Below are positions 3,808 to 50,597 of a stretch of 50,597 bases of DNA, piece after piece. A model generated the notes under the pieces. The model was not told the DNA's origin. It did no database searches and saw only the letters and a list, made by a program, of their open reading frames with translations. The position numbers were made by a program, and so were the translations under genes. Source of the stretch: Shigella phage S2_02. Numbering within the stretch: position 1 is the stretch's first letter; each line of letters starts with the position of its first letter. The stretch is taken from the sequence record OQ223306. One strand, 5' to 3'.

Positions 3808-3847
3808 GGCCTTATTGAAGCATGGCAACCAATCAGAGGAATCAGCT

Positions 3848-8264: not shown

Positions 8265-8492
8265 ATGACCATTTTTTTATTGATTCTTGCTGGTATCGTT
8301 ATTTTTGGTGCTGGTTTGTTTGCTGGATTCGCACTTGTGGCGGCAGCAATTGCGATGGACGCGAAGAATAAAACTGGTGTATGGCTGACCTACTCGCCTA
8401 AGAAGGACCAATGGGAAATGACTGGCGACCTTGCTCACTGCTACTCTAAAGCACAGACCCACCCAAAAGGCATTAAACGACGATTATCGTGA
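8265..8492 (+). CDS. small membrane protein (75 aa)
   Basis: ORF track; SD AAGGAG; N-terminal hydrophobic segment IFLLILAGIVIFGAGLFAGFALVAAAIA. Confidence 0.55.
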   Translation: MTIFLLILAGIVIFGAGLFAGFALVAAAIAMDAKNKTGVWLTYSPKKDQWEMTGDLAHCYSKAQTHPKGIKRRLS

Positions 8493-8535: not shown

Positions 8536-8561
8536 TGGTAAAATAACACTAAATGTTAAAC
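8536..8561 (+). promoter_or_regulatory. Putative late promoter (extended -10 TGgTAAAAT) overlapped by box copy AATAACACTAAATGTTAAAC
   Basis: TGGTAAAAT 8536-8544; box 8542-8561 spans predicted start and abuts TerS SD. Confidence 0.4.
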
Positions 8562-15775: not shown

Positions 15776-15803
15776 TTGACGCTTTAACAAAAAGTGCTAT
15801 TAT
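15776..15803 (+). promoter_or_regulatory. Putative sigma70-type promoter for major capsid gene (TTGACG-16-TATTAT) with box copy in the spacer
   Basis: TTGACG 15776-15781, TATTAT 15798-15803; reverse-orientation box 15781-15801 fills the spacer. Confidence 0.45.
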
Positions 15804-19510: not shown

Positions 19511-19565
19511 CTGTAAAATCATCCTATCAACTTTATTCAATTAACTTTTAACAAAAAGTGCTATC
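19491..19565 (+). promoter_or_regulatory. Putative promoter for tail chaperone (TTGCGC-17-TAAAAT) with box copy in 5' UTR
   Basis: -35 TTGCGC 19491-19496 inside hairpin, -10 TAAAAT 19514-19519, reverse-orientation box 19545-19565 just before SD. Confidence 0.4.
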
Positions 19566-35121: not shown

Positions 35122-35174
35122 AATAGCACGAATTGCTAAGCACAGATTTTATCATTGTGCCACCTGCCTTGCAA
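35122..35174 (-). promoter_or_regulatory. Putative sigma70 promoter for tail-fibre gene (TTGCAA-17-TAAAAT, minus strand) with box copy at the start site
   Basis: Minus-strand -35 at 35169-35174, -10 at 35146-35151; box AATAGCACGAATTGCTAAG 35122-35140 between start site and SD AAGGAG. Confidence 0.45.
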
Positions 35175-36150: not shown

Positions 36151-36217
36151 AAAATAAAAAACGCGTAGAAGGATGTTAACCCGCTACGCGTCGTTTGTTT
36201 TAACTAAAAATGCTATT
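36151..36217 (-). promoter_or_regulatory. Minus-strand module: box + 18 bp + TAACAT overlapping hairpin/T-run terminator, upstream of primase
   Basis: Box (revcomp AATAGCATTTTTAGTTAAAAC) 36197-36217 contains stop of upstream gene; -10-like at 36173-36178; hairpin ACGCGTAG/CTACGCGT 36161-36191 then U-run. Confidence 0.45.
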
Positions 36218-36652
36218 GGTCGTTCCGATATCTTCCTTCTTCACGACGCGCATAAATTTCTTGTTCTTGCATCTCTTCTCTAGGCACTTGCCGTTACCGT
36301 CAAACTTGAGGTCGAATCGCAACCATGCGGCGCGGAATCCTTTACAACCCTGACGACGGTAAGCACGATGTGCAGCTTCAGCACCTTGCCACGAAATCAT
36401 GTTGCGCTCCTTCCATCCCTGCACGGTCTGATTGCTAACTTTCAGAGCCTTTGCGCAAGCCGCCGGACCACCATAATATTCAATAAGAGCATCCAATCGC
36501 GCTCTCAGTCCTGCGCGCGTTTCTTCTTTATGGATATAAAATCCGCAGCGCTGGCGAGGCTTTTTATCTTTACCGCGTCGTGTTCCGTTGTTACCATTGA
36601 TGTGACGTTTATCGATTTCACCAGTAGACTCTGCGATACGTTTCATATTCAT
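36200..36652 (-). CDS. putative helix-turn-helix DNA-binding protein (150 aa); candidate regulator
   Basis: ORF-track frame 36200..36724; ATG 36652 has SD AGGAG; basic N-terminus and HTH-like segment PAACAKALKVSNQTVQGWKER; function unverified. Confidence 0.5.
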   Translation of the reverse strand: MNMKRIAESTGEIDKRHINGNNGTRRGKDKKPRQRCGFYIHKEETRAGLRARLDALIEYYGGPAACAKALKVSNQTVQGWKERNMISWQGAEAAHRAYRRQGCKGFRAAWLRFDLKFDGNGKCLEKRCKNKKFMRVVKKEDIGTTNSIFS

Positions 36653-36663
36653 CTTAATTCTCC

Positions 36664-36732
36664 TGTAGCACTTTTTGCTAAAAACGTTTACTGTATGCCG
36701 TGTATTATATCGTAAACGATACAACGATTCAA
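36664..36732. promoter_or_regulatory. Overlapping divergent promoters: box + 18 bp + TATTAT (plus, helicase) and TTGAAT-17-TATAAT (minus, HTH gene)
   Basis: Box 36664-36684; plus -10 at 36703-36708; minus -35 at 36727-36732 and -10 at 36704-36709; box lies in 5' UTR of the minus transcript. Confidence 0.45.
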
Positions 36733-36746
36733 AGGATTAAATAGCC

Positions 36747-38765
36747 GTGACAATTAACATCAAAAAGCAAATCGCATTACTTGGCGAGGACTATATAAAA
36801 CGCACTCAAGAACGATTCACTGTCGGTGAGGTCGTTCCTTATCCGTATCAGGTTGTTGCTTATGCCGAGATCGCAAAACGCCTTTCAAATTACGAGCATC
36901 CATTCTTTGTTAAAGCGTCAGTATCTGCTGGTAAAACAATCATATTCGCTATGGTGGCAAAGCAGTGTCAAAAAATGGGATTGAAAATGCTTGTGCTTGC
37001 GAGGCAGGGTGAGATTGTCGATCAGGATAGTGAGGAGATCGATAACTTCGGGGTAACGAACTCCATCTTCTCAGCGTCGCTTGGAATCAAGTCCTGCTAC
37101 TTCCCGATCGTGGTTGGCTCTGAGGGTACTGTTGCAAATGGCCTAAACAATGAGTTGGCTGATTTTGTCCCGCATGTAATTGGGATCGACGAATGTCACC
37201 AGGTGGATTGGGAAGACCTTGCTCAAGCCATTGAAGGAAAGGAAACGATGGAGCAGATGAAGGGGGAGAAAGGGAAAGTTATTATGGACGGGGAGATTCC
37301 TCTGATTGGTAATGATGGGAAACCTTTACTTGGAACTAAGCGAAGCCAGTACACTATCGTAATCATGGAGATGATGCGTCGCTGTAAAGAGATTCACGGG
37401 CATGACCTCAGAATATTTGGCATGACAGGATCTGAATTTAGGGGCGTTGTTCCGATTCTGGTGGAGAATACAAAGGCGTTAGGATTCTGGCGTGAGCGCG
37501 TAACTGATATCGATACAAACTATCTGATTGAGTTCGGCTCTGTTGTGCCGACGATATTCGGTTCAACTGACGGAGTACACTACGATCTGGATAAGTTCAA
37601 GGCGTCAAGCGAGGACGGCGTACAGGACTTTACAGAGAAAGATATGAAGGCTATGGAAGATGAGATCCTTCATGATAAATCCCTGACTCAGCGAATCATG
37701 CAAATGGTCGCCAAAAAGGCAGAAGAACGCAATGCGGTCCTGATTACATGTGCCGGGGTGCGTCACTGTAAAGAGGCGGCGGCGGCACTTCCACCTGGAA
37801 GTACCTATGCAATTATCACTGGCGAAACAGACACCAAAACGCGCAAGAAGATTCTTGATGATGTGAGGGCCGGGAAAATTAAATACACCTTTCAGGTAAT
37901 GGCGCTCACTACTGGCGTTAACGTTCCAAATTGGGATTTCAGTGTCATACTCCGCAAGATAGGGTCGCTCACACTGTTGATTCAACTTTTGGGTAGGGGT
38001 ATGCGTCTGCTTAAACCCTGGCAGGTTGCTGAGGGAATGGTTAAGCAGGACCATCTGGTATGGGATTTCGCAGGTACGATGGATGAATTGGGTCAGCTTT
38101 ATTTCGATCCGATACTTGAGCAGGCACAATTCCAAAAGCGTTTTGAAAACGGCAAAGATCCGAAAACATGTCCGAAATGCGGTTGCGTAAATAGCTTCTA
38201 TGCTCGACGATGCGTTAACGTTATCGACGGCGAGCGCTGCGATCACTTCTGGACTTCTCAGATTTGCGAGGACCAGGTTGATGAACGTACCGGGAAAATT
38301 CTTGTTAAAGGGTGTGGTGCTGAGAATGACGTTGTGGCACGAGTCTGTCGTTGCTGTGATGTTTCTCTCGTCGATCCGAACCTGAAGTTGTCCGGTAAGG
38401 CGTACACTAAGAATGACTGGTACGAGGTCAAGAATTTTGAGGTTACGCTAACCAAAAACCAAAAGGGCGTGATATACAAATATACGCTGATTAATGATGA
38501 CGGCGATGAGTTCAAGGCGTATGAAAAATTCTTCCCTGAGTCCGACTCTAAGATTTGCGGTACGCTATGGAAAACGAAAGGTGTATTACCTCATGTGTCA
38601 GATCCTAAAATGCGTCGCTACTTTATTGGAATGAAGAACGCTATCAAGATCGTGCAATACTCGCATCATATAGCGCATCCGGTGCGCGTAACTCATCGCC
38701 GCAACCAGAAGAAAGAAGATATTATCTCACGCAAAGACTTCGGTATGGAGGATATCCCGGAATGA
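36747..38765 (+). CDS. superfamily-2 DNA helicase (DEAH-type) with C-terminal zinc-finger region (672 aa)
   Basis: ORF track (GTG start); Walker A SAGKT and motif II DECH; C-terminal Cys clusters. Confidence 0.8.
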   Translation: MTINIKKQIALLGEDYIKRTQERFTVGEVVPYPYQVVAYAEIAKRLSNYEHPFFVKASVSAGKTIIFAMVAKQCQKMGLKMLVLARQGEIVDQDSEEIDNFGVTNSIFSASLGIKSCYFPIVVGSEGTVANGLNNELADFVPHVIGIDECHQVDWEDLAQAIEGKETMEQMKGEKGKVIMDGEIPLIGNDGKPLLGTKRSQYTIVIMEMMRRCKEIHGHDLRIFGMTGSEFRGVVPILVENTKALGFWRERVTDIDTNYLIEFGSVVPTIFGSTDGVHYDLDKFKASSEDGVQDFTEKDMKAMEDEILHDKSLTQRIMQMVAKKAEERNAVLITCAGVRHCKEAAAALPPGSTYAIITGETDTKTRKKILDDVRAGKIKYTFQVMALTTGVNVPNWDFSVILRKIGSLTLLIQLLGRGMRLLKPWQVAEGMVKQDHLVWDFAGTMDELGQLYFDPILEQAQFQKRFENGKDPKTCPKCGCVNSFYARRCVNVIDGERCDHFWTSQICEDQVDERTGKILVKGCGAENDVVARVCRCCDVSLVDPNLKLSGKAYTKNDWYEVKNFEVTLTKNQKGVIYKYTLINDDGDEFKAYEKFFPESDSKICGTLWKTKGVLPHVSDPKMRRYFIGMKNAIKIVQYSHHIAHPVRVTHRRNQKKEDIISRKDFGMEDIPE

Positions 38766-39241
38766 TTGAATGGTCAAAATACCTTAAGTACAACTACGGT
38801 AATCTTTACTGGCTCGTCACTAGAAATAATAGAGTTCAAGCTGGAACGCTTGCTGGAACTATAAGTGATGAGGGTTACGTGAAAGTCATGATGCGCAAGA
38901 AGGCGTATCATGCTCATAGAATAATATGGGAGATGCACTACGGAAAAATACCCGAAGGGATGGAAGTAGACCATATAAATCACGACAGGACTGACAACAG
39001 AATAGAAAACCTTCGTCTTGTCACTAAGCAAGTTAACATGAAAAATAAATCATCATATTCAAATAACAAATCTGGCGTTACTGGAGTAAGCTGGCACTCA
39101 AAGAAAAAGAAATGGGTAGCTCAGATACAAAGCAACAAGAGGAAAAAGATGTTATATGAAGGGGATAGCTTTGATGATGCAGTGAAGGCGAGAAAGTCAG
39201 CAGAGATAGAGCTTGATTTTCATAAAAATCACGGGGTGTAA
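38762..39241 (+). CDS. HNH endonuclease with AP2-like domain (159 aa)
   Basis: ORF track; HRIIWEMHYGKIPEGMEVDHINHDRTDNRIENL HNH core; paralog of 9130 and 49475 genes. Confidence 0.8.
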   Translation: MIEWSKYLKYNYGNLYWLVTRNNRVQAGTLAGTISDEGYVKVMMRKKAYHAHRIIWEMHYGKIPEGMEVDHINHDRTDNRIENLRLVTKQVNMKNKSSYSNNKSGVTGVSWHSKKKKWVAQIQSNKRKKMLYEGDSFDDAVKARKSAEIELDFHKNHGV

Positions 39242-43741: not shown

Positions 43742-44142
43742 TGAGACTTAAGAAAACGTGCATTGCGATTGCAGTGGCTGTTGGTGTTATTTCTCTATCC
43801 GGTTGCTCGACAGCATCTGCCCTGAGCGGTTTAATCGGATCTAAACCGGAAGTTACAGCACAAATCGGAGAGGAGAATACAAAGCAATTAGCAGGAGTAA
43901 CCGCAAAATCCGAAGATAAGCGAGATGTTAAAGTTGAGAAGTCCAATGTAGGAAAGATTGACTCTTCCTTGAAGAAGTCAATTGAAGTGTCAACCATTAA
44001 GGCCAACACAGTTAACGCTGAAAGCATCACAGTAACAAAACCGGAAAACTGGTACGACGCTATCGTTGGCTGGATTCTCGTTTTTATTGGTCTATTGCTG
44101 GTTTATTTTTCACTTCGTAAGGACGAAAAAAAGGAGGCTTAG
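43738..44142 (+). CDS. unimolecular spanin (134 aa)
   Basis: ORF track; N-terminal lipoprotein signal with lipobox LSGC plus C-terminal transmembrane helix in one polypeptide, as in T1-type u-spanin. Confidence 0.7.
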
Positions 44143-44153
44143 CCTCCTTTGTT
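44125..44153. terminator. Bidirectional Rho-independent terminator
   Basis: AAGGAGGC-tta-GCCTCCTT with A-run upstream and T-rich downstream; between convergent gene ends. Confidence 0.6.
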
Positions 44154-44355
44154 ATTTGTACCTTTTGACATGGAGAAGCAACTCCACATCCTGATCGCAA
44201 AGATTATGCTCGCTGTCATTGTTGGCCCTCATTGAAGTAAGTAACAGGCTGAGTAACCCCTGTTCAAATTCTTCCTTTGTAAGCTGGAGTCTTGCGCACA
44301 ATTCGACGTTCCGATCTATCAATGTTTCTACGTTCGCCAAACAAATCCTCATCAC
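44152..44355 (-). CDS. hypothetical protein (67 aa), overlaps end of upstream gene
   Basis: ORF track; SD GGAGAG before ATGATG; overlaps 44264..44671 by 92 nt. Confidence 0.3.
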   Translation of the reverse strand: MMRICLANVETLIDRNVELCARLQLTKEEFEQGLLSLLLTSMRANNDSEHNLCDQDVELLLHVKRYK

Positions 44356-44671
44356 TCATCTCTCCAATATGCATCATTTCCCATGTATACCGATTGTTGT
44401 AACCATCAATACACATCAGCTTCATCATTACCGGGCGCTTAATCTTTCCCTTGCACCAGTAAACACCATCCTTGCGATCCAAGTAACCCTCAGTCACACA
44501 ACGAGCGCAAAACTCCTTAGATAGCGAGCTTGTAAATTCACGGTGAGTCATTCCAGCAGCCTTAGCAAATCGCTCACTTTCCTTGTGGGCGTATATAAAT
44601 TTCGCTATGTGCTGTCGGGTGTATTTGTCGTAACCTTCGCAGAACCTGAACAGATCTAAAAGAAGCAGCAT
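44264..44671 (-). CDS. hypothetical protein (135 aa)
   Basis: ORF track; Cys/His-containing, basic C-terminus. Confidence 0.45.
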   Translation of the reverse strand: MLLLLDLFRFCEGYDKYTRQHIAKFIYAHKESERFAKAAGMTHREFTSSLSKEFCARCVTEGYLDRKDGVYWCKGKIKRPVMMKLMCIDGYNNRYTWEMMHIGEMSDEDLFGERRNIDRSERRIVRKTPAYKGRI

Positions 44672-44675
44672 ATCA

Positions 44676-46244
44676 TTAACCCATCAGTCTAGGATTGATG
44701 AAAACAATATCATCAATGCGGCAAGTGTAGTTCATCTCTTCGAGCGTGATCAGCAGGCTATCGATTCGCTCAGATACTTTCTGTTGACCGCTGAACGGCG
44801 TAACGTTCCGGCACTTTGCAACAATGCTATGAATAGGTGCGCGGCCTTTGTTCTTCTTCGCGATCTCAGTGATAACATCAATCAGCTTACGAGATTCAGC
44901 CTCATCACCAGCATACCCGGCAGCGCTGGCAGACGACAGATAAGTCCTGGAAAGCTCATTGAAAATCATGATCGCTTCCTGCATTGTTTCAAGGTCAATC
45001 TCACGGTTGGCCCGGTTCGGTGATTCACCCTCCCAATTCTTGATCGTGTGGAGAACTGAAGCAATACGCAGGGCGTGCTTATCGAACTTACCGAGATGAC
45101 CGCGTAGCATTGAGTGAGAGTATTTTCCCCCTGCGGCGAAATCCGGTTCCATCGCCTGACGCGCAAGGTTTAATTCACGCATAGCATTACGGCTCACAGA
45201 TAGAACAACGTTATCCTCTTTCATGATGTTGTGGACGAGTCGATAGTATTTGCTAACCAATCCGCGATCGACTTCCTTATACAGTGCATCACCATTTTCA
45301 TCGCAAAGAATACGAGTACCTAAAAGCGGTTCCTCGCGAACCAATAGGAAACGCTCAGATACACCGATACCGCGCTGGCCTGCGTCCATGATACCCTTGA
45401 TTGTTTCATCCTGCGCAATGACGCAGATCGAACCGACCGGGCAAAGAGATAAGTTGTTGTCCTGATTTGAACGCGCGACCTCCATATGGTTTTTATCCCA
45501 CGCCTTAAGGATAAGCTCGCTGTTTGATTTCTTATCAGAACCGCCATAGGTCAGTCCCAGCAATGTATTTATTGCTGTTGCCTCATCAGAGATTACGGAG
45601 AAGTGACCTTGAACAGCCGCCACCTTCGCAAGACCTTCAGGTGTAGGATCTGATACCGCGAAAACAATATCAGCCATCTTCTTGATCTTCTCTTCCAGTT
45701 TTTCTTTGTCCTCGTACAGAGCAGCCGTCGTGTTGCCTTTAGGATCGTTTTTTATTTCCTTCTCGACCTGACGTAGCTGACTGGTTAAACGGATACGTTC
45801 CTTTTTACGCTCTTCATTCAGTCGCTGAATCTCCGCACGCATAGGTGTAATCGCCGCTGAGTTAATCGCTGATTTACCTGTTGACGGTGGCTGGCTAATC
45901 ACCATATAAAGAGCGGTCGGTTGTTCTTCTCCGTGATATTGCACCCAAAACTTCCCGAGCATCGCGGCTGAGATGCACCCAATGAAATGAGCGTACGCAG
46001 ACGAAACAGGAAACTGTACAGACTCAGCCTTTGCCTTTGCATATTCGAATACCAGGTTATCGCCACCTAACGAAATCAGAGGGAACTTATCGTTTCCACT
46101 GTTGATATCGATCGGATCTTGCCAAAACGAAACTGAATCCCCATAGCTGTTTTCACGAATTGCGATCGCCACCGGATTAACTCCAGTGCTATTTGCGATC
46201 TCAATAATCTGTTGGTAATTCAGTTTTGGCTTAATATTAAACAT
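44676..46244 (-). CDS. putative P-loop ATPase, replication/recombination-associated (522 aa)
   Basis: ORF-track frame 44676..46307; ATG 46244 has SD AAGGAG; Walker-A-like PPSTGKSA. Confidence 0.6.
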   Translation of the reverse strand: MFNIKPKLNYQQIIEIANSTGVNPVAIAIRENSYGDSVSFWQDPIDINSGNDKFPLISLGGDNLVFEYAKAKAESVQFPVSSAYAHFIGCISAAMLGKFWVQYHGEEQPTALYMVISQPPSTGKSAINSAAITPMRAEIQRLNEERKKERIRLTSQLRQVEKEIKNDPKGNTTAALYEDKEKLEEKIKKMADIVFAVSDPTPEGLAKVAAVQGHFSVISDEATAINTLLGLTYGGSDKKSNSELILKAWDKNHMEVARSNQDNNLSLCPVGSICVIAQDETIKGIMDAGQRGIGVSERFLLVREEPLLGTRILCDENGDALYKEVDRGLVSKYYRLVHNIMKEDNVVLSVSRNAMRELNLARQAMEPDFAAGGKYSHSMLRGHLGKFDKHALRIASVLHTIKNWEGESPNRANREIDLETMQEAIMIFNELSRTYLSSASAAGYAGDEAESRKLIDVITEIAKKNKGRAPIHSIVAKCRNVTPFSGQQKVSERIDSLLITLEEMNYTCRIDDIVFINPRLMG

Positions 46245-46273
46245 CACAATAAACTCCTTAGTTGACGGTGTGA

Positions 46274-46318
46274 ATGATACACCGCCAATGGTACACGCGT
46301 TTTGCAAAAAGTGCTATT
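46274..46318 (-). promoter_or_regulatory. Leftward early promoter module (box + 18 bp + TATCAT on minus strand)
   Basis: Box (revcomp AATAGCACTTTTTGCAAAACG) 46298-46318; minus-strand -10 at 46274-46279. Confidence 0.45.
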
Positions 46319-46320
46319 GG

Positions 46321-46737
46321 TTATAAGTATTTGGCCTCAAAGGTTGTGCCGTCTGCAATGATGAATCCGACATCCGCACGAAATAAGGTCCAGCGGCAAC
46401 CGTCCTCATCAAAGATGTAACCAGCCACAGCACCGAGAGCGCGACCGCTTTCTACCTGGTAACGCTTTCCAACCTTGAATGATTTTTTCATCGGGTTGCG
46501 ATGGTCAAGTCCGGTGCACTTGAGCGTCTTTGTTTTCAACTCAGTGAACTTCGCGAAGAAGATTTCATCAGATCCGTGAATATGTAATTCATCATGCTTT
46601 TCAAGTTTTAAATACTTCCCGCATTTTAACTTGATTTCACGAGTGCCATCATATCGCTCACGACCTTTGTATAGGTTGTTTACTTCAAATCCTGTGATTT
46701 TATCTGCGTGAGTACATTTCAGTTTGATGGATTTCAT
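46321..46737 (-). CDS. hypothetical protein (138 aa)
   Basis: ORF track; SD AATCAGGAG. Confidence 0.55.
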   Translation of the reverse strand: MKSIKLKCTHADKITGFEVNNLYKGRERYDGTREIKLKCGKYLKLEKHDELHIHGSDEIFFAKFTELKTKTLKCTGLDHRNPMKKSFKVGKRYQVESGRALGAVAGYIFDEDGCRWTLFRADVGFIIADGTTFEAKYL

Positions 46738-46773
46738 TTCGTTAACTCCTGATTGGTTATCTTGAATAAGGTC

Positions 46774-46818
46774 ACTTTATCAAATGACCTTACGGCAACA
46801 TTAACAAATCGTGCTATT
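46774..46818 (-). promoter_or_regulatory. Leftward early promoter module (box + 18 bp + TAAAGT)
   Basis: Box 46798-46818; -10 inside hairpin AAGGTCA/TGACCTT (46768-46792), which differs from the 3791-3817 hairpin by compensatory changes. Confidence 0.5.
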
Positions 46819-47027
46819 TACCAGGGAATATAATCGTCGTCGTCTTCATTAATATCATCACTATGTAATTCAAAGTTAGGATCGTATTCGCTTTCAGCAT
46901 CCATATCCATATCGCCAAGAGCCTCATCAAGTGTTATTTCTTTATATGCAACCTTGACGCACCATTCGGCACTAAGTCCAGCATCAAGCGCTGCGAAATA
47001 ACGGGTCCAAAAATTATCCTGCTCCAT
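46818..47027 (-). CDS. small highly acidic protein (69 aa)
   Basis: ORF track; Asp/Glu-rich (DMDMDAESEYDPNFELHSDDINEDDDDYIPW). Confidence 0.5.
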   Translation of the reverse strand: MEQDNFWTRYFAALDAGLSAEWCVKVAYKEITLDEALGDMDMDAESEYDPNFELHSDDINEDDDDYIPW

Positions 47028-47030
47028 TAA

Positions 47031-47255
47031 TTAACTCCATGAATTAATATAAATTGAGTTTGCTTCAAGCGTAGCACGAACATCGGCATCTGTTGCATTT
47101 ACTAAGCGCGAGCATGGCGTGCTTCCGATAACGTTATTACCGTTACGAGTCTTAGTTACCGTCATTGAAATAAAGCCGGAAGACTTATCCATTTTGATAA
47201 CTACACGGCCTTTCGCGTTCAGGTGCTTGATGATATTCTCAACTTTAATGCTCAT
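47031..47255 (-). CDS. hypothetical protein (74 aa)
   Basis: ORF track; SD AAGGAA. Confidence 0.5.
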   Translation of the reverse strand: MSIKVENIIKHLNAKGRVVIKMDKSSGFISMTVTKTRNGNNVIGSTPCSRLVNATDADVRATLEANSIYINSWS

Positions 47256-47287
47256 TTTTAATTCCTTTGTTTGTTTGGTGTGGGAGT

Positions 47288-47333
47288 AATATACCTTACT
47301 CCCTGCTGATTGTCTTTAGCTATTCGTGCTATC
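47288..47333 (-). promoter_or_regulatory. Leftward early promoter module (box + 19 bp + TATATT)
   Basis: Box 47313-47333; -10 within hairpin GGGAGTAA/TTACTCCC (47282-47303). Confidence 0.45.
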
Positions 47334-47475
47334 AGTACTCAGAAATTACTTTGCACTCTTTGATTGTGCCGCCTAGAACTACTTTCTGCATCATTGCTTT
47401 TTGGTGGCTATCGTAGACGCGAACATTTTTTACGCTGTTAAATTTGCCAGTATAGAAAGTGTGAATATAAATCAT
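47332..47475 (-). CDS. hypothetical small protein (47 aa)
   Basis: ATGA overlap with upstream gene stop; stop TGA adjoins box; below ORF-track cutoff. Confidence 0.3.
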   Translation of the reverse strand: MIYIHTFYTGKFNSVKNVRVYDSHQKAMMQKVVLGGTIKECKVISEY

Positions 47476-47858
47476 TTTTTACCGTCCCATGTTTGATATG
47501 CCGTAACCAGGTTAATGCTATGGTCGAACTCGTCAACGCTAAGCGATCCAATTCGAACAATCTCCTTGTTGTGCTTAATGTCAATCATCCGGCTGCATGG
47601 ATGACCTGGAACGTATTTAAATAGACGCTTGCTGTCGGCAATGTCTGCGTTAATTCCGTAGAATCGGCCTACTGCCGCCTTAACGCGCTCCATGATGTTT
47701 TTTTCGTGGATTGCTGCCGCGTTATTTAGTGCCGCAACCGTGCTTCCGTTAATCTTCGGTGACTTCGTTGTGATTTTGTAAGTGTGGTTCATTATTCCCC
47801 CTAACCAGTCAGGATAGCTTCCGCGCTTCATCAATGATAACAGGTTCGAGACGCTCAA
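47472..47858 (-). CDS. hypothetical protein (128 aa)
   Basis: ORF track. Confidence 0.55.
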   Translation of the reverse strand: MSVSNLLSLMKRGSYPDWLGGIMNHTYKITTKSPKINGSTVAALNNAAAIHEKNIMERVKAAVGRFYGINADIADSKRLFKYVPGHPCSRMIDIKHNKEIVRIGSLSVDEFDHSINLVTAYQTWDGKK

Positions 47859-48009
47859 GTCGAACGCGGAACGTGTTCATAAATCCCTCGTTATTCTTCA
47901 ATAACTCGAAGGCGTCCGTAGCTTCAATGGCGCTACTACCCATGTAAGCGATTACTTTTTTCTTAGTCTTGCGTGAGATCGCCACCACGCGGTAAATATT
48001 ATCACTCAT
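47809..48009 (-). CDS. hypothetical protein (66 aa)
   Basis: ORF-track frame 47809..48027; ATG 48009 preferred (SD AAGGAGG 7 nt upstream). Confidence 0.5.
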   Translation of the reverse strand: MSDNIYRVVAISRKTKKKVIAYMGSSAIEATDAFELLKNNEGFMNTFRVRLERLEPVIIDEARKLS

Positions 48010-48202
48010 ACAATGCCTCCTTAACACGATCCGCTACACATGAGTTAACGGTGATTGAATAGTTTGTCACGCCCCATAATGCAATATTGCCAAGCTCGGT
48101 ACGCATAGATGGATTGTTTAGCTGGATGATTGTCTCGCCAGTATCGTCATCGAAGAAACGAGACGCGCCAGAACGGTCCACCACGCGCGTTACGCGGTTC
48201 AC
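48002..48202 (-). CDS. hypothetical protein (66 aa)
   Basis: ORF track (GTG start); weak SD. Confidence 0.4.
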   Translation of the reverse strand: MNRVTRVVDRSGASRFFDDDTGETIIQLNNPSMRTELGNIALWGVTNYSITVNSCVADRVKEALYE

Positions 48203-48205
48203 GCA

Positions 48206-48373
48206 CTACATTACATCACTTACGCCGTAATAAGCGCTCAGAGCGGATCTCAAGGCCTTCTCTTGCTTGTTGTAAATATTGCGCGCGATGTTCTCGATCG
48301 CCACGCTTTCTTTCTCGTCAGTCTGGATTGCAGTGCTGGCTGAGAAGTCCAGATCTGTGAACTGATTAAACAT
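48206..48373 (-). CDS. hypothetical protein (55 aa)
   Basis: ORF-track frame 48206..48418; ATG 48373 (SD GAGGAAAG) is the first start downstream of predicted start of module 48405-48449. Confidence 0.45.
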   Translation of the reverse strand: MFNQFTDLDFSASTAIQTDEKESVAIENIARNIYNKQEKALRSALSAYYGVSDVM

Positions 48374-48404
48374 GATTCTTTCCTCGTTCTCTGTTGGTGG
48401 GATG

Positions 48405-48449
48405 ACTATACCAGCCATCCCGGATGCGCGTTTAGCAAAAAGTGCTATT
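48405..48449 (-). promoter_or_regulatory. Leftward early promoter module (box + 18 bp + TATAGT)
   Basis: Box 48429-48449; minus-strand TATAGT at 48405-48410; CATCC start-like motif. Confidence 0.5.
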
Positions 48450-48609
48450 CGATAACTTCCTTTGGAACGACCTTGATCTCATCAAAGAAGTTAGTCCTGT
48501 CATTCTCAGTGAGATTCTTGATCTCGTTAGCTTTGCTCTCGGTCGAGCATATCTCGATCAGTTCGTCACCTTCATAGTAGATGGTTCCAACCACGCAATA
48601 TACGATCAT
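48445..48609 (-). CDS. hypothetical small protein (54 aa)
   Basis: ATGA overlap with stop of 48606..48986; stop TAG inside box 48429-48449; below ORF-track cutoff. Confidence 0.35.
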   Translation of the reverse strand: MIVYCVVGTIYYEGDELIEICSTESKANEIKNLTENDRTNFFDEIKVVPKEVIE

Positions 48610-48986
48610 AATTTTTCCTCCAGCACTTCACGGATGCGGTTGATTGCATCCAACTTGTCGCAATCCCAACGAGTCGTTCCGTTATCCGGTCGCCCTTCAA
48701 ACGCGAGACTCACCTCTTCGAGAAGGTTGTCAATGATAGCCTCCTTCTCGTCGCCGTCCATCTTTCCGAACTCAACCGATCCGACGTAGCGATTGATATA
48801 AGCAATCATGCTTTTATGCTCTTCAATGGTAAAGATATCCGTGATACTGATCCCGGTATCGCGTTGAGTGATAATTACTCGATTGCTCGGGCGAATGATG
48901 CCGCCCACCAGGCGATTGCAAATCTCAACGGTAAAACCTTTCTCATTTGCGCGGTCAATTGCTGCCTGAAGTTTTGAATCTGTCAT
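48606..48986 (-). CDS. hypothetical protein (126 aa)
   Basis: ORF track; SD AATCAGGAGAA. Confidence 0.55.
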   Translation of the reverse strand: MTDSKLQAAIDRANEKGFTVEICNRLVGGIIRPSNRVIITQRDTGISITDIFTIEEHKSMIAYINRYVGSVEFGKMDGDEKEAIIDNLLEEVSLAFEGRPDNGTTRWDCDKLDAINRIREVLEEKL

Positions 48987-49016
48987 CTGGTGATTCTCCT
49001 GATTGGTTTATGTGTT

Positions 49017-49062
49017 CAATATACCCCGATTACCTTCGGGGCGTTTAGCAATTCGTGCTGTT
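49017..49062 (-). promoter_or_regulatory. Leftward box copy with hairpin; -10 weak
   Basis: Box (revcomp AACAGCACGAATTGCTAAACG) 49042-49062 with hairpin CCCCGA/TCGGGG; no good -10 at the expected spacing. Confidence 0.35.
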
Positions 49063-49396
49063 AATCAATATCGAACTCAGCGGCATACGCTTTCTTGAAG
49101 CCAGCTTCACGCATGGTACGCTTACTGATTTTTCGCGGGAACTTGTACTGGCTGTTAGGCTTAACCCACCAGAAGCAGGCAGTTTCGCGAACGATTTCAT
49201 ATTTACCATAGCGGGTGAAGGTGTCACGTTCAGCGTCCGGCTGGTTAACACAGGTCAGGAATTTAGCAGCTTTGTCTTCAGTTTTGATTTCTTCCCATAC
49301 GAAGGAATCCATACCGTTAACTTTGCAAGCTACCATGATGTACTCAACGCCGTTTTCGATTTTGATGATTTCGTTACCGCGATTTTCGTATTTCAT
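49061..49396 (-). CDS. hypothetical protein (111 aa)
   Basis: ORF track. Confidence 0.55.
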   Translation of the reverse strand: MKYENRGNEIIKIENGVEYIMVACKVNGMDSFVWEEIKTEDKAAKFLTCVNQPDAERDTFTRYGKYEIVRETACFWWVKPNSQYKFPRKISKRTMREAGFKKAYAAEFDID

Positions 49397-49434
49397 TTTC
49401 CTGCCCCTGATGTGTATCTCGTTTCGATGAAGTA

Positions 49435-49479
49435 ATTATGCCAAATCACACCGATCGAGTTTTAACAAAAAGTGCTATT
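49435..49479 (-). promoter_or_regulatory. Leftward early promoter module (box + 18 bp + CATAAT)
   Basis: Box 49459-49479 contains stop of HNH gene; minus-strand -10 at 49435-49440. Confidence 0.45.
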
Positions 49480-50002
49480 TGCCGTGGTTTTCATGGTATC
49501 CGTGTTCATATTCAGCGGCTTTCTTTGCGGAAATCGCATCATCAAAACTTGAGAAGCACCCTATGTAAATTCTCCTTCCTCGCTTTCCCCCTCCAATCCT
49601 TACAACCCATTTGCCATGTTTATTTTTATGCACACCTGGTATGCCACTTGTATTGTTTTTCTGTTTTGATGTGTTTCGCATATTTCCTTTGTGATCTTTT
49701 AGCTCAAAGTTTATTGCTCTGTTATCAGTCGTAATGTGATTTACGTGATCAACCTCCTTTCCTTCAGGTATAGTCCCATAGTGCATTTCATAGCATATTC
49801 TATGAACTTTTAGGTTATAACGTTTTCCGTTTATAGTAAGTGCGGTTTCTAAATATCTGCCACCACTACCCAAAGAGCCAACCTCATTACCAGCATTGCA
49901 AGCATTCCATTGTTTAACTCTTGATTTGTGGATATCTTTTCTTTCTTTCCAGAACAGCTTTCCAGTTTTCGGATTGTATGTAAAGTAATCATGCCAATTC
50001 AT
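49475..50002 (-). CDS. HNH endonuclease with AP2-like domain (175 aa)
   Basis: ORF track; HRICYEMHYGTIPEGKEVDHVNHITTDNR HNH core; paralog of 9130 and 38762 genes. Confidence 0.8.
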   Translation of the reverse strand: MNWHDYFTYNPKTGKLFWKERKDIHKSRVKQWNACNAGNEVGSLGSGGRYLETALTINGKRYNLKVHRICYEMHYGTIPEGKEVDHVNHITTDNRAINFELKDHKGNMRNTSKQKNNTSGIPGVHKNKHGKWVVRIGGGKRGRRIYIGCFSSFDDAISAKKAAEYEHGYHENHGK

Positions 50003-50114
50003 TCATCACCTCAAAACGGAAGATATCGCGCAAAGTTAAGTTCATGACCAGCAAGGCCGGAACCGTCAAATAGTGACCAGATTAATTTCACTTGTTGCAT
50101 TCTCCTGATTAACC

Positions 50115-50249
50115 TTATCGCTTACCCTGACCGTTGCAGGCCGGACACGTAATTCTCTGCATCATCCAGACTCCAGAGACTTCAGTGAATAACGGAACCA
50201 TAGTAAATCCACGACCAGCACACTGACTACAAATCTGTTTAACTCTCAT
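50115..50249 (-). CDS. small zinc-ribbon-like protein (44 aa)
   Basis: ATG with SD AGAGGAAG; two CxxC pairs (CSQC ... CPAC); below ORF-track cutoff. Confidence 0.4.
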   Translation of the reverse strand: MRVKQICSQCAGRGFTMVPLFTEVSGVWMMQRITCPACNGQGKR

Positions 50250-50283
50250 TTTTGCTTCCTCTTCTGATTGGTTGATGTGATGA

Positions 50284-50329
50284 ATCATACCCTGCCAACA
50301 TAGCTAAGTCGTTAGCAAAAAATGCTATT
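50284..50329 (-). promoter_or_regulatory. Leftward early promoter module (box + 19 bp + TATGAT), first of leftward early region
   Basis: Box (revcomp AATAGCATTTTTTGCTAACGA) 50309-50329; minus-strand -10 at 50284-50289; CATCA start-like motif. Confidence 0.45.
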
Positions 50330-50470
50330 CCAATAATTGCTCATTATTCCATCAATAGTGGAATATGTGGAATAATTTTGATTGTGATTGATTGCGAATG
50401 ATGAAACGTGATTATTGCATGGTGCGCAACAGTTGGTTGATTTGTTGCTGAGAATGCAATGATTGTGAGA
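50330..50470. repeat. Repeat-rich non-coding control region (TGGAAT/ATTCCA and GATTG repeats) ending in G8
   Basis: Short direct and inverted repeats read directly; continues across the assembly junction into 1-445. Confidence 0.5.
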
Positions 50471-50597
50471 GGGGGGGGAATTGGTGTTACCCAGTTCACC
50501 TGGTAGTCATCTCCATTTTTAGCAAAAAGTGCTATCCATTACGATTACGCTTGATTGTGTGTTAATCCATGTATATGATTTGCCTAAATCGCAATCG
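50471..50597. repeat. Terminal direct repeat copy 2 (identical to 1-127)
   Basis: Exact match to window start; repeat may continue beyond window end. Confidence 0.9.

Follow-up and report, generated by a model that had tools for sequence, protein, structure and literature searches.

A repeated box, −10 hexamer and hairpin in the leftward early region of Shigella phage S2_02 resembles a class II marbox promoter cassette

The leftward early region of Shigella phage S2_02 (sequence record OQ223306) carries seven copies of a short module, each lying just upstream of a gene start on the minus strand. We analyzed the whole 50,597-nucleotide stretch, referred to here as the window, and consider it moderately probable, judging from sequence comparison, that these modules are extended −10 promoters read by host RNA polymerase, activated from a site resembling the class II marbox and packaged as stem-loop cassettes; they would be local copies of a promoter cassette general to the early/middle genes of T1-like phages. 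Read with transcription, a module consists of the box, exactly 20 nt, a −10 hexamer of the TATAGT type, a C-rich stretch, a conserved A (+1), a leader of 20–32 nt and a Shine-Dalgarno sequence, and most modules also hold an inverted repeat, variable in sequence between copies, around or just before the −10 (Table 1). The observation holds up well beyond chance, and the element itself has already been published as an unexplained repeat. Within the literature searched, its interpretation as an extended −10 promoter without a −35, joined to a site of the class II marbox type and overlapped by a covarying hairpin, appears to be new.

The box, TAGCACTTTTTGCTAAA, occurs in 18 copies at three or fewer mismatches across the whole window compared to 0.2 expected, an over-representation of about 90-fold, and within modules it takes the form of a 17–20 nt sequence, aATAGCAC-N3-TTGYTAAAac. 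Boxes of the leftward region start, on the minus strand, at 46316, 46816, 47331, 48447, 49060, 49477 and 50327, and there is an orphan copy at 50534. When boxes with up to two core mismatches were counted (n = 23), an nAnnnT hexamer was present 20–21 nt past the 17-mer (offset 37–38) in 20, and the window holds about 20 full copies, that is, a box with a correctly spaced −10. A sequence-only reading of this DNA had placed the leftward modules in intervals that open 2 nt ahead of the box and close with the last base of the −10 hexamer, in gene orientation and upstream of minus-strand starts; both the positions and the orientation were borne out, the latter for all seven copies. It had also described the copy at 49017–49062 as lacking a good −10, which is not what we find: TATATT at 49023–49018 is a 5/6 match with A−11, T−7 and G−14 at the canonical 20-nt spacing. 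This copy is a full seventh module, and its oddity is a hairpin placed wholly in the spacer.

The repeat was previously reported in the re-annotation of phage TLS by Kropinski and colleagues (2024; PMC11447400) as a 21-nt direct repeat, aaATAGCACnnnTTGnTAAAA, which is found at 21 places, runs with transcription and lies about 76 nt upstream of start codons. The same authors noted it in T1, Rtp and Rogue1 and proposed a role as stoperator, enhancer site or UP-like element, none of which was settled; only three sigma-70-like promoters were reported for TLS (PMC11447400). A logo of 393 unique copies assembled here, aaATAGCAC(TTT/GAA)TTG(C/T)TAAAAc, agrees with the TLS consensus, and the two descriptions are alike in orientation with transcription and in distance to the start codon (about 76 nt in TLS; 72–81 nt, mean about 76, here). 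They differ in that the TLS paper treats the repeat alone and describes no fixed −10 partner, +1, overlapping hairpin or marbox match. Phage T1 has 7 full modules within its first 7 kb, none of them annotated as a promoter.

To describe the promoter core we used the window and 120 related viral contigs or loci, which together gave 529 unique segments containing a box. A strong −10 lies at exactly offset 37 from the box start in 402 of the 529 unique boxes, a count that is inflated for copies matched by the pattern with which the related contigs were fetched (it demanded TATAGT 18–22 nt after the box) and to that extent weighs against our interpretation; other copies in the fetched loci, as well as the window itself, are free of this bias. 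In the logo the 20-mer is followed by 18 variable nucleotides, then G−14 (90%) and TATA(A/G)T, and downstream of the hexamer by a C-rich discriminator, C−1 (73%), A+1 (87%) and an A-rich ATCGAAACGAA start. Neither G−14 nor C−1 nor A+1 was used in selecting the copies, and the conserved A lies 7 nt past the hexamer. In these positions the logo has the hallmarks of an extended −10 promoter whose transcripts start at a purine seven bases past the hexamer, and the modules very probably function as promoters, on which host sigma-70 RNA polymerase would read the extended −10 (G−14, TATA(A/G)T) and start at the A seven nucleotides downstream. The earlier promoter interpretation stands as regards the shared modules, their gene orientation and predicted start sites beyond the starts of the open reading frame (ORF) track, to which G−14, TATA(A/G)T and C−1/A+1 speak; as standard sigma-70 promoters the modules do not qualify. 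A scan of 44000–50597 for canonical TTGACA-N16–18-TATAAT returned 12 sites compared to 13.5 expected, only one of which coincides with a module. Predicted transcripts mostly begin ATCGA(A/C)AACGA and have conserved 5’ untranslated region elements, and a recurrent motif of the leader and ribosome-binding site (RBS), ACCAATCAG(A)GGA, precedes many module-driven genes (46750–46760, 48993–49003, 50262–50272, 2190–2205 and 3815–3830).

Three other identities for the box were considered and rejected. As a −35 element, the box is placed 5 bp too far upstream, since 22 bp separate its TTGCTA from the −10. Sigma-54 promoters have GG and GC elements 10 nt apart (TGGCAC-N5-TTGC); the box, TAGCAC-N3-TTGC, has AG for GG, its spacing is 2 nt short, and a conserved sigma-70 −10 follows. 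The modules are like T4 middle promoters in that the −35 is replaced by an upstream box with TTGCT and a sigma-70 −10 is kept, but the Mot box (TGCTT) lies about 12 bp from the −10, is centred near −30 and needs MotA and AsiA, whereas TTGCTA lies 22 bp away here. A T4-type Mot box was rejected on this position, and a Pfam scan of 40 early/middle proteins gave no MotA, AsiA, AraC or sigma domain.

What the box does resemble is the marbox/soxbox/robbox consensus. With the hexamer set at −12 to −7, it spans −50 to −31 as an asymmetric 20-bp sequence, ATAGCAC(TTT/GAA)TTG(C/T)TAAAAC, which matches 10 of the 10 specified positions of the consensus GCANNWWNTGNNAAA (PMC12052159, where class II means forward orientation with the site over the −35) and 13 of the 14 specified positions of the consensus AYNGCACNNWNNRYYAAAYN (PMC2064960). 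Perfect matches to GCANNWWNTGNNAAA number 17 in the window compared to 0.9 in shuffles. The micF promoter of E. coli K-12, which we read directly, has the marbox ACAGCACTGAATGTCAAAAC, 18 bp, and the −10 TAGAAT, and its GCAC has the G 35 nt ahead of the T that opens the −10; the phage module is identical in the 18 bp from 20-mer to −10, in the 35 nt from G to T and in the AAAAC end. Box and marbox share 14–15 of 20 positions at micF and 16 of 20 at the mar operon, both read from K-12. GCAC of the phage box falls at −47 to −44 and the centre of the 20-mer at about −41; at micF, −47G and −45A are contacted by Rob, which holds sigma region 4 away from the −35 (PMC9178005), and RamA binds at about −41 (PMC8811837).

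The modules are like class II marbox promoters such as micF in having an asymmetric 20-bp site with GCAC and YAAA elements, placed forward over the −35, and no functional −35. They differ from them in number and setting, since the host promoters belong to a stress regulon and have degenerate sites, whereas about 20 near-identical copies here serve early/middle genes of a virulent phage; they also have an extended −10 and a hairpin across it, and binding of MarA, SoxS or Rob is putative. A host monomer of the MarA/SoxS/Rob type, most plausibly the constitutive Rob, would bind the box, replace the contact between sigma region 4 and the −35, and recruit RNA polymerase. Dependence on these host proteins is a proposal that, from the match in consensus and register, we place at or slightly below an even chance. 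The literature search found no T1-like transcriptome and no link between marboxes and phage promoters.

The pattern of conservation bears on the kind of protein that may bind. The core TAGCA-N5-TGCTA is palindromic, yet conservation is asymmetric: G−47 is present in 98% of copies and its partner at −37 is C in 64% and T in 32%, equal to the Y of the marbox, while C−44 and T−40 are each about 99% conserved and non-complementary, and AAA is conserved on both flanks. Such asymmetry fits a monomer with a pair of helix-turn-helix (HTH) motifs, such as MarA, and not a symmetric dimer. A symmetric dimer operator, or an RNA hairpin of UAGCA with UGCUA, was rejected, despite a few compensatory cases, on the same asymmetry and on the 16 copies with non-pairing purines at −37.

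The strength of the −10 raises the possibility that no activator is involved and that sigma-70 RNA polymerase alone uses the extended −10, with the box serving the alpha C-terminal domains as a contact site, either UP-like or DNA-bending, and its marbox likeness coincidental. Extended −10 promoters can work without a −35, G−14 is present in 90% of copies, the box has T- or A-tracts, and T1-like phages grow well in unstressed hosts; an UP-like role is also among those proposed for the TLS repeat (PMC11447400). However, invariant GCAC and TTG(C/T)TAAA around a variable centre is not the A/T-rich pattern of UP elements, and the box occupies −50 to −31, not −59 to −38. The box agrees with two marbox consensuses at 13 of 14 and 10 of 10 positions, and its register is that of micF. 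By our own estimate a chance match has a probability of about 7e-6 per alignment, and we regard the factor-independent explanation as rather unlikely.

Several points nevertheless weigh against activation by host marbox proteins. Rob is mostly inactive where cells are unstressed, MarA and SoxS occur in small amounts, and T1-like phages thrive in ordinary cultures, so that a strict need for the three would come as a surprise; for basal activity the extended −10 may be enough. At consensus position 19, a Y, 77% of copies have A. Conservation of the box far exceeds that of host marboxes and extends to N positions of both consensuses (A−48, T−40), which might point to another binder of greater specificity or to copies homogenised by recombination. 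In the literature searched we found no 5’-end, binding or genetic experiments for any T1-like phage. Finally, the phage encodes a putative HTH regulator of its own, phrog_2856.

This last protein is the main alternative binder, in the putative sense, and might act on the core TAGCA-N5-TGCTA as an activator, a repressor (“stoperator”) or a timing switch. It matches a transcriptional regulator family at E = 2e-76, with a sub-threshold P22_Cro HTH, and the RBS of its gene directly adjoins the box at 36666–36682, a candidate autoregulation site in the divergent region shared with a helicase-like gene at 36747. The tight conservation of the box and a few symmetric double changes (A−47 with T−37, T−47 with A−37) also suit a phage protein, whereas the asymmetry described above (G−47 versus C−37, non-complementary C−44 and T−40, AAA on both sides) and the strictly fixed orientation of the box relative to the −10 do not. 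An obligatory phage activator would moreover need another promoter for itself and for the earliest genes, while the same box serves both early arms, and no lysogeny functions are present that would require stoperators. A phage-encoded binder is, in our judgment, distinctly unlikely. Homologues of MarA, SoxS or Rob were not found in the six frames of the window (tblastn and hmmsearch, with sequences of the three proteins as queries).

The hairpin is a property of most, though not all, modules. In the leftward region five of the seven copies have folding energies between −10.5 and −14.9 kcal/mol; the hairpin of 49477 is weak, and 50327 lacks one. The mean minimum free energy (MFE) of 385 unique copies is −10.4, compared to −6.8 for chimeras made of the left half of one copy and the right half of another (p = 1e-39). 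The stem encloses the −10 in 204 of these copies and lies wholly in the spacer in 125; the other 56 are without a stem. Copies were not selected for pairing, and the discriminator (−6 to −1) forms Watson-Crick pairs with −24 to −19 at 47.8% versus 32.9% after permutation (z = 16). Orthologues show compensatory changes, with arms AAGGTCA/TGACCTT, AACGTCA/TGGCGTT, AAGGCCA/TGGCCTT and GAGGGCA/TGTCCTC.

Three findings favour action of the stem in RNA, on transcripts reading through from upstream: in either of its positions the hairpin is complete before +1 is reached, no hairpin is present in 50327 or 36666, the modules that head arrays, and hairpins are stronger where the upstream ORF abuts the box (−11.2 versus −8.8, p = 0.0009). 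The hairpin would then most likely be read in RNA from upstream promoters as a 3’ stem-loop, a partial terminator or an exonuclease barrier, ending the preceding unit just before the next +1. Two results count against this part of the interpretation. Sense folds are 2.6 kcal/mol more stable and have more G-U pairs (398 versus 147), but this excess was rejected as RNA-level evidence since without the −10 hexamer pairs the counts are 87 GT and 80 AC. In addition, a simple terminator scan found no module hairpin with a T-run or U-tract; ATCGA or the −10 itself comes next. We hold action at the RNA level as a tentative conclusion, its likelihood a little under one half. The stem may alternatively act in DNA. 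MarA distorts base pairing 5 bp beside its own site (PMC12781870), and such a distortion would here fall near the base of the upstream arm, a connection that is speculative. A search of the window against Rfam returned no known RNA family.

In the deposited record of the relative SA30RD, five orthologous hairpins are called rho-independent terminators by WebGeSTer and TransTermHP, and one could suppose that the modules are mainly terminators and the −10-like hexamer incidental. The hairpins are real and covarying, and those of type B are followed by U-rich UAUAGU. Against this, the terminator scan finds no terminator at any module and no T-run, terminators have no need for a hexamer with A−11, T−7 and G−14 at a fixed 20 nt from a box or for a conserved A+1, and two modules with box and −10 have no hairpin. 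This makes the terminator explanation extremely improbable; the sole canonical terminator that the scan finds in the region is the one at 44130–44150.

Besides their likely role in expression, the modules behave as cassettes. A 49,372-bp relative (L039) is without 613 bp between modules 49060 and 48447, so that the genes 48606–48986 and 48445–48609 are gone, and it has in their place a hybrid module equal to 49060 up to the −10 and to 48447 from about +1, with the crossover between the −10 and about +5. In comparisons of the window with related loci, homology breakpoints are 3.9-fold enriched in modules, although their endpoints are not independent. Complete T1-type modules, with box, GGGGTA/TACCCC hairpin, TATAGT, ATCGAAAC and RBS, are also present in three contigs of 174–180 kb, the size of T4-like phages (L011:10042–10085, L059:82–126 and L069:11478–11522), which suggests cassette transfer between phage families.

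T4-type phages have comparable elements, the PeSLs, which combine a promoter with a terminator stem-loop and mediate modular shuffling (PMC2839356, PMC4122927). Like these, the modules are small conserved promoter and stem-loop cassettes between small non-essential genes, in gene orientation, in which recombination between copies yields indels. PeSLs differ in having a near-consensus −35/N17/−10 and a separate stem-loop shown to terminate transcription; the modules have an activator-type box instead of the −35, and their stem-loop overlaps spacer, −10 and discriminator without a U-tract. As a whole a module would be a compact cassette of stop codon, stem-loop and promoter, analogous to PeSLs, that doubles as a recombination joint for gene gain and loss. 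The stronger claim, that the repeats are primarily recombination or boundary sequences for gene-cassette exchange, kept alike by gene conversion and with no direct role in transcription, would account for the hybrid module at the 613-bp indel, the enriched breakpoints, the copies in contigs of T4-like size and the stops built into three frames. It leaves unexplained why the modules keep one orientation to genes and a constant spacing from start codons, why their conservation resembles that of promoters and why they are confined to early/middle regions, and we think it very improbable; both roles coexist in PeSLs (PMC2839356), which makes recombination more a second function than a rival.

Placing the predicted start sites within modules affects the assignment of several gene starts. 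From box start to start codon, modules 1–7 measure 78, 81, 74, 74, 76, 79 and 72 nt, and these starts are preceded by Shine-Dalgarno sequences, whereas the ORF track takes the first ATG, GTG or TTG after a stop. Three ORF-track starts fall inside modules, 48418 (ATG) in a hairpin arm, 46307 (TTG) in the box and 50288 (ATG) in the −10, and all three are upstream of the predicted transcription start sites. With mRNA leaders of a predicted 20–32 nt, the true starts would be the RBS-preceded 50249, 49396, 48986, 48373, 47255, 46737 and 46244/46247. The proposal that 48373 and not 48418 is the start gained support from relatives: L039 has a different module before its orthologue of the 48373 gene and no 48418-type ATG, and it keeps GAGGAAAGAATCATG. 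SA30RD has no 50288-type ATG and an in-frame TAG before the conserved ATG. Relatives without the 48418-type and 50288-type ATGs still keep the downstream ATG and RBS, and 50249 is likewise the supported start over 50288 as far as sequence goes. For the DUF3987/helicase-like gene, the proposed move from 46307 to 46244 holds in part: the TTG at 46307 is inside the box, but beside ATG 46244, 9 nt after AAGGAG, stands GTG 46247, 6 nt after it. These corrections are ordinary start-codon choice, and annotations of relatives already use the later starts.

Each box had also been said to overlap the stop of the preceding gene, which holds for two of the seven and not for the other five. The box TAG is itself the stop at module 2 (49477–49475, HNH gene) and module 4 (48447–48445, 54-aa gene). 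At boxes 49060, 47331 and 46816 the preceding stop ends 0–1 nt before the box, at 46316 it ends 4 nt before, and box 50327 has no credible upstream gene. Family-wide, the upstream ORF ends inside the box in 250 of 364 cases, and the consensus box offers stops in all three frames (TAA at −4/−3, TAG at 0 and TAA at +13).

Should the repeat be where an activator binds at promoters without a −35, a promoter map of the whole T1-like family follows, many starts of small genes could be fixed, and deposited “terminator” annotations could be read anew. If the activator is host Rob, MarA or SoxS, a lytic phage would have tied its programme to a stress regulon of its host, one that also governs antibiotic tolerance and phage receptors (TolC, and OmpF by way of micF), and the coupling would bear on phage therapy given with antibiotics or bile. 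The cassette behaviour, for its part, offers a concrete mechanism for the mosaicism of early regions. Taken to its full extent, the argument would have a virulent enterobacterial family (T1, TLS, Rtp and relatives) run early/middle transcription from about 20 class II marbox promoters, driven by and tuned to the MarA/SoxS/Rob stress and bile response in place of −35 recognition or a phage factor, with the unit of box, −10 and hairpin moving genes within the family and into T4-like phages; we think this possible, though on the whole doubtful.

Table 1. Modules, genes and other features discussed, with coordinates in the window; +1 positions, module assignments and gene starts are predictions. 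MFE values are in kcal/mol.
Feature	Coordinates	Strand	Details
Module 1 (head of array)	50277..50328	−	Box 50328–50309 (aTAGCATTTTTTGCTAACg); −10 TATGAT 50289–50284; predicted +1 ~50277; no hairpin (MFE −3.8, z +0.6); predicted to drive 44-aa gene from ATG 50249, not 50288
Module 2	49425..49478	−	Box 49478–49459; −10 CATAAT 49440–49435; predicted +1 A 49428 (ATCGAAACGA); start ATG 49396; hairpin weak (MFE −6.7, z −1.5), GGGGTxx/xxACCCC stems of orthologues stronger
Module 3	49011..49061	−	Box 49061–49042; −10 TATATT 49023–49018; predicted +1 A 49011; start ATG 48986; type-B hairpin CCCCGA/TCGGGG 49042–49023, wholly in spacer (MFE −12.4)
Module 4	48398..48448	−	Box 48448–48429; −10 TATAGT 48410–48405; predicted +1 A 48398; start ATG 48373; hairpin arms 48421–48412 and 48408–48399 (GGGATG/CATCCC core), enclosing −10 (MFE −14.9)
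Module 5	47281..47332	−	Box 47332–47313; −10 TATATT 47293–47288 (spacing 21); predicted +1 A 47281; start ATG 47255; hairpin GGGAGTA/TACTCCC 47303–47296 and 47289–47282 (MFE −12.8, z −5.1)
Module 6	46766..46817	−	Box 46817–46798; −10 TAAAGT 46779–46774 with TGn; predicted +1 A 46767; start ATG 46737; hairpin AAGGTCA/TGACCTT within 46793–46766 (MFE −14.6, z −5.4), compensatory variants in orthologues
Module 7	46264..46317	−	Box 46317–46298 (TTGCAAAA variant); −10 TATCAT 46279–46274; predicted +1 ~46267; hairpin GGTGT/ACACC within 46286–46264; start ATG 46244 or GTG 46247, not TTG 46307
Leftward gene array served by modules	44264..50249	−	
44-aa gene, first of array	50115–50249	−	Module 1
HNH gene (HNH_3 endonuclease, 175 aa)	49475–50002	−	
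Gene	49061–49396	−	Module 2
Gene	48606–48986	−	Module 3
54-aa gene	48445–48609	−	
123-codon gene	48002–48373	−	Module 4; broken by in-frame TAG 48206–48208
Gene	47809–48009	−	
Gene	47472–47792	−	
Gene	47332–47475	−	
Gene	47031–47255	−	Module 5
Gene	46818–47027	−	
Gene	46321–46737	−	Module 6
DUF3987/helicase-like gene	44676–46244	−	Module 7
Last gene of array	44264–44671	−	
Terminator (bidirectional, T-run)	44130..44150	.	Where leftward and rightward genes converge
Putative transcriptional regulator phrog_2856	36203–36652	−	E = 2e-76; sub-threshold P22_Cro (Cro-like) HTH
Orphan box	50516..50535	−	Perfect TAGCACTTTTTGCTAAA; no −10 at module spacing and no gene behind; same sequence at 48–64

By its sequence the window is a complete T1-like phage genome. 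The region 46000–50597 matches 96 phage records at about 90% identity, and the closest relatives of the window are Escherichia phage SA30RD and Shigella phage Shfl1 (about 91% identity; Drexlerviridae, genus Tunavirus). Its final 127 bases (50471–50597) are an exact repeat of bases 1–127, and a G8 run opens the window; the end repeat looks like a circular-assembly overlap, with a unique genome of 50,470 bp, and because of it the orphan box is counted twice (48–64 is 50518–50534). Between 130 and 440 a non-coding, strongly AT-rich segment with ATATA-type repeats and three tandem CGATTAACA units (about 340–370) separates the two divergent early arms and may be an origin, a pac or a regulatory region.

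Within the leftward array, the first gene encodes a 44-aa product with a likeness to the DnaJ-type CXXCXGXG zinc finger (Pfam, sub-threshold). The HNH_3 gene, located between the module 1 gene and module 49477 (49475–50114), has a 112-nt untranslated gap before its start and no module of its own, and it looks like a homing-endonuclease insertion; a second HNH gene, of the HNH-AP2 type, is present at 38762–39241 in the rightward block. The codon at the in-frame TAG of the 123-codon gene is GAG in three relatives, and the TAG may have arisen by nonsense mutation or sequencing error, or the gene may depend on a suppressor. Elsewhere, a 64-aa protein at 1473–1664 matches the Pfam family Gp54, “phage antiviral trigger protein” (E = 6e-33).

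Boxes also occur without module context, at 15783–15799, 19547–19563, 8544–8560 and 35124–35140 in the window and at 8363 in T1 (L123). Two of these are reverse-oriented and lie beside T-run terminators between late genes, one lies antisense between two minus-strand genes, and one, in forward orientation, directly precedes the RBS of a small-terminase-like gene, as it does in T1. The reverse boxes of the late region were rejected as class I marboxes since the start site would land on the start codon. At the reverse box at 19563 a TAGGAT stands at module spacing, and a short antisense RNA could be made from it.

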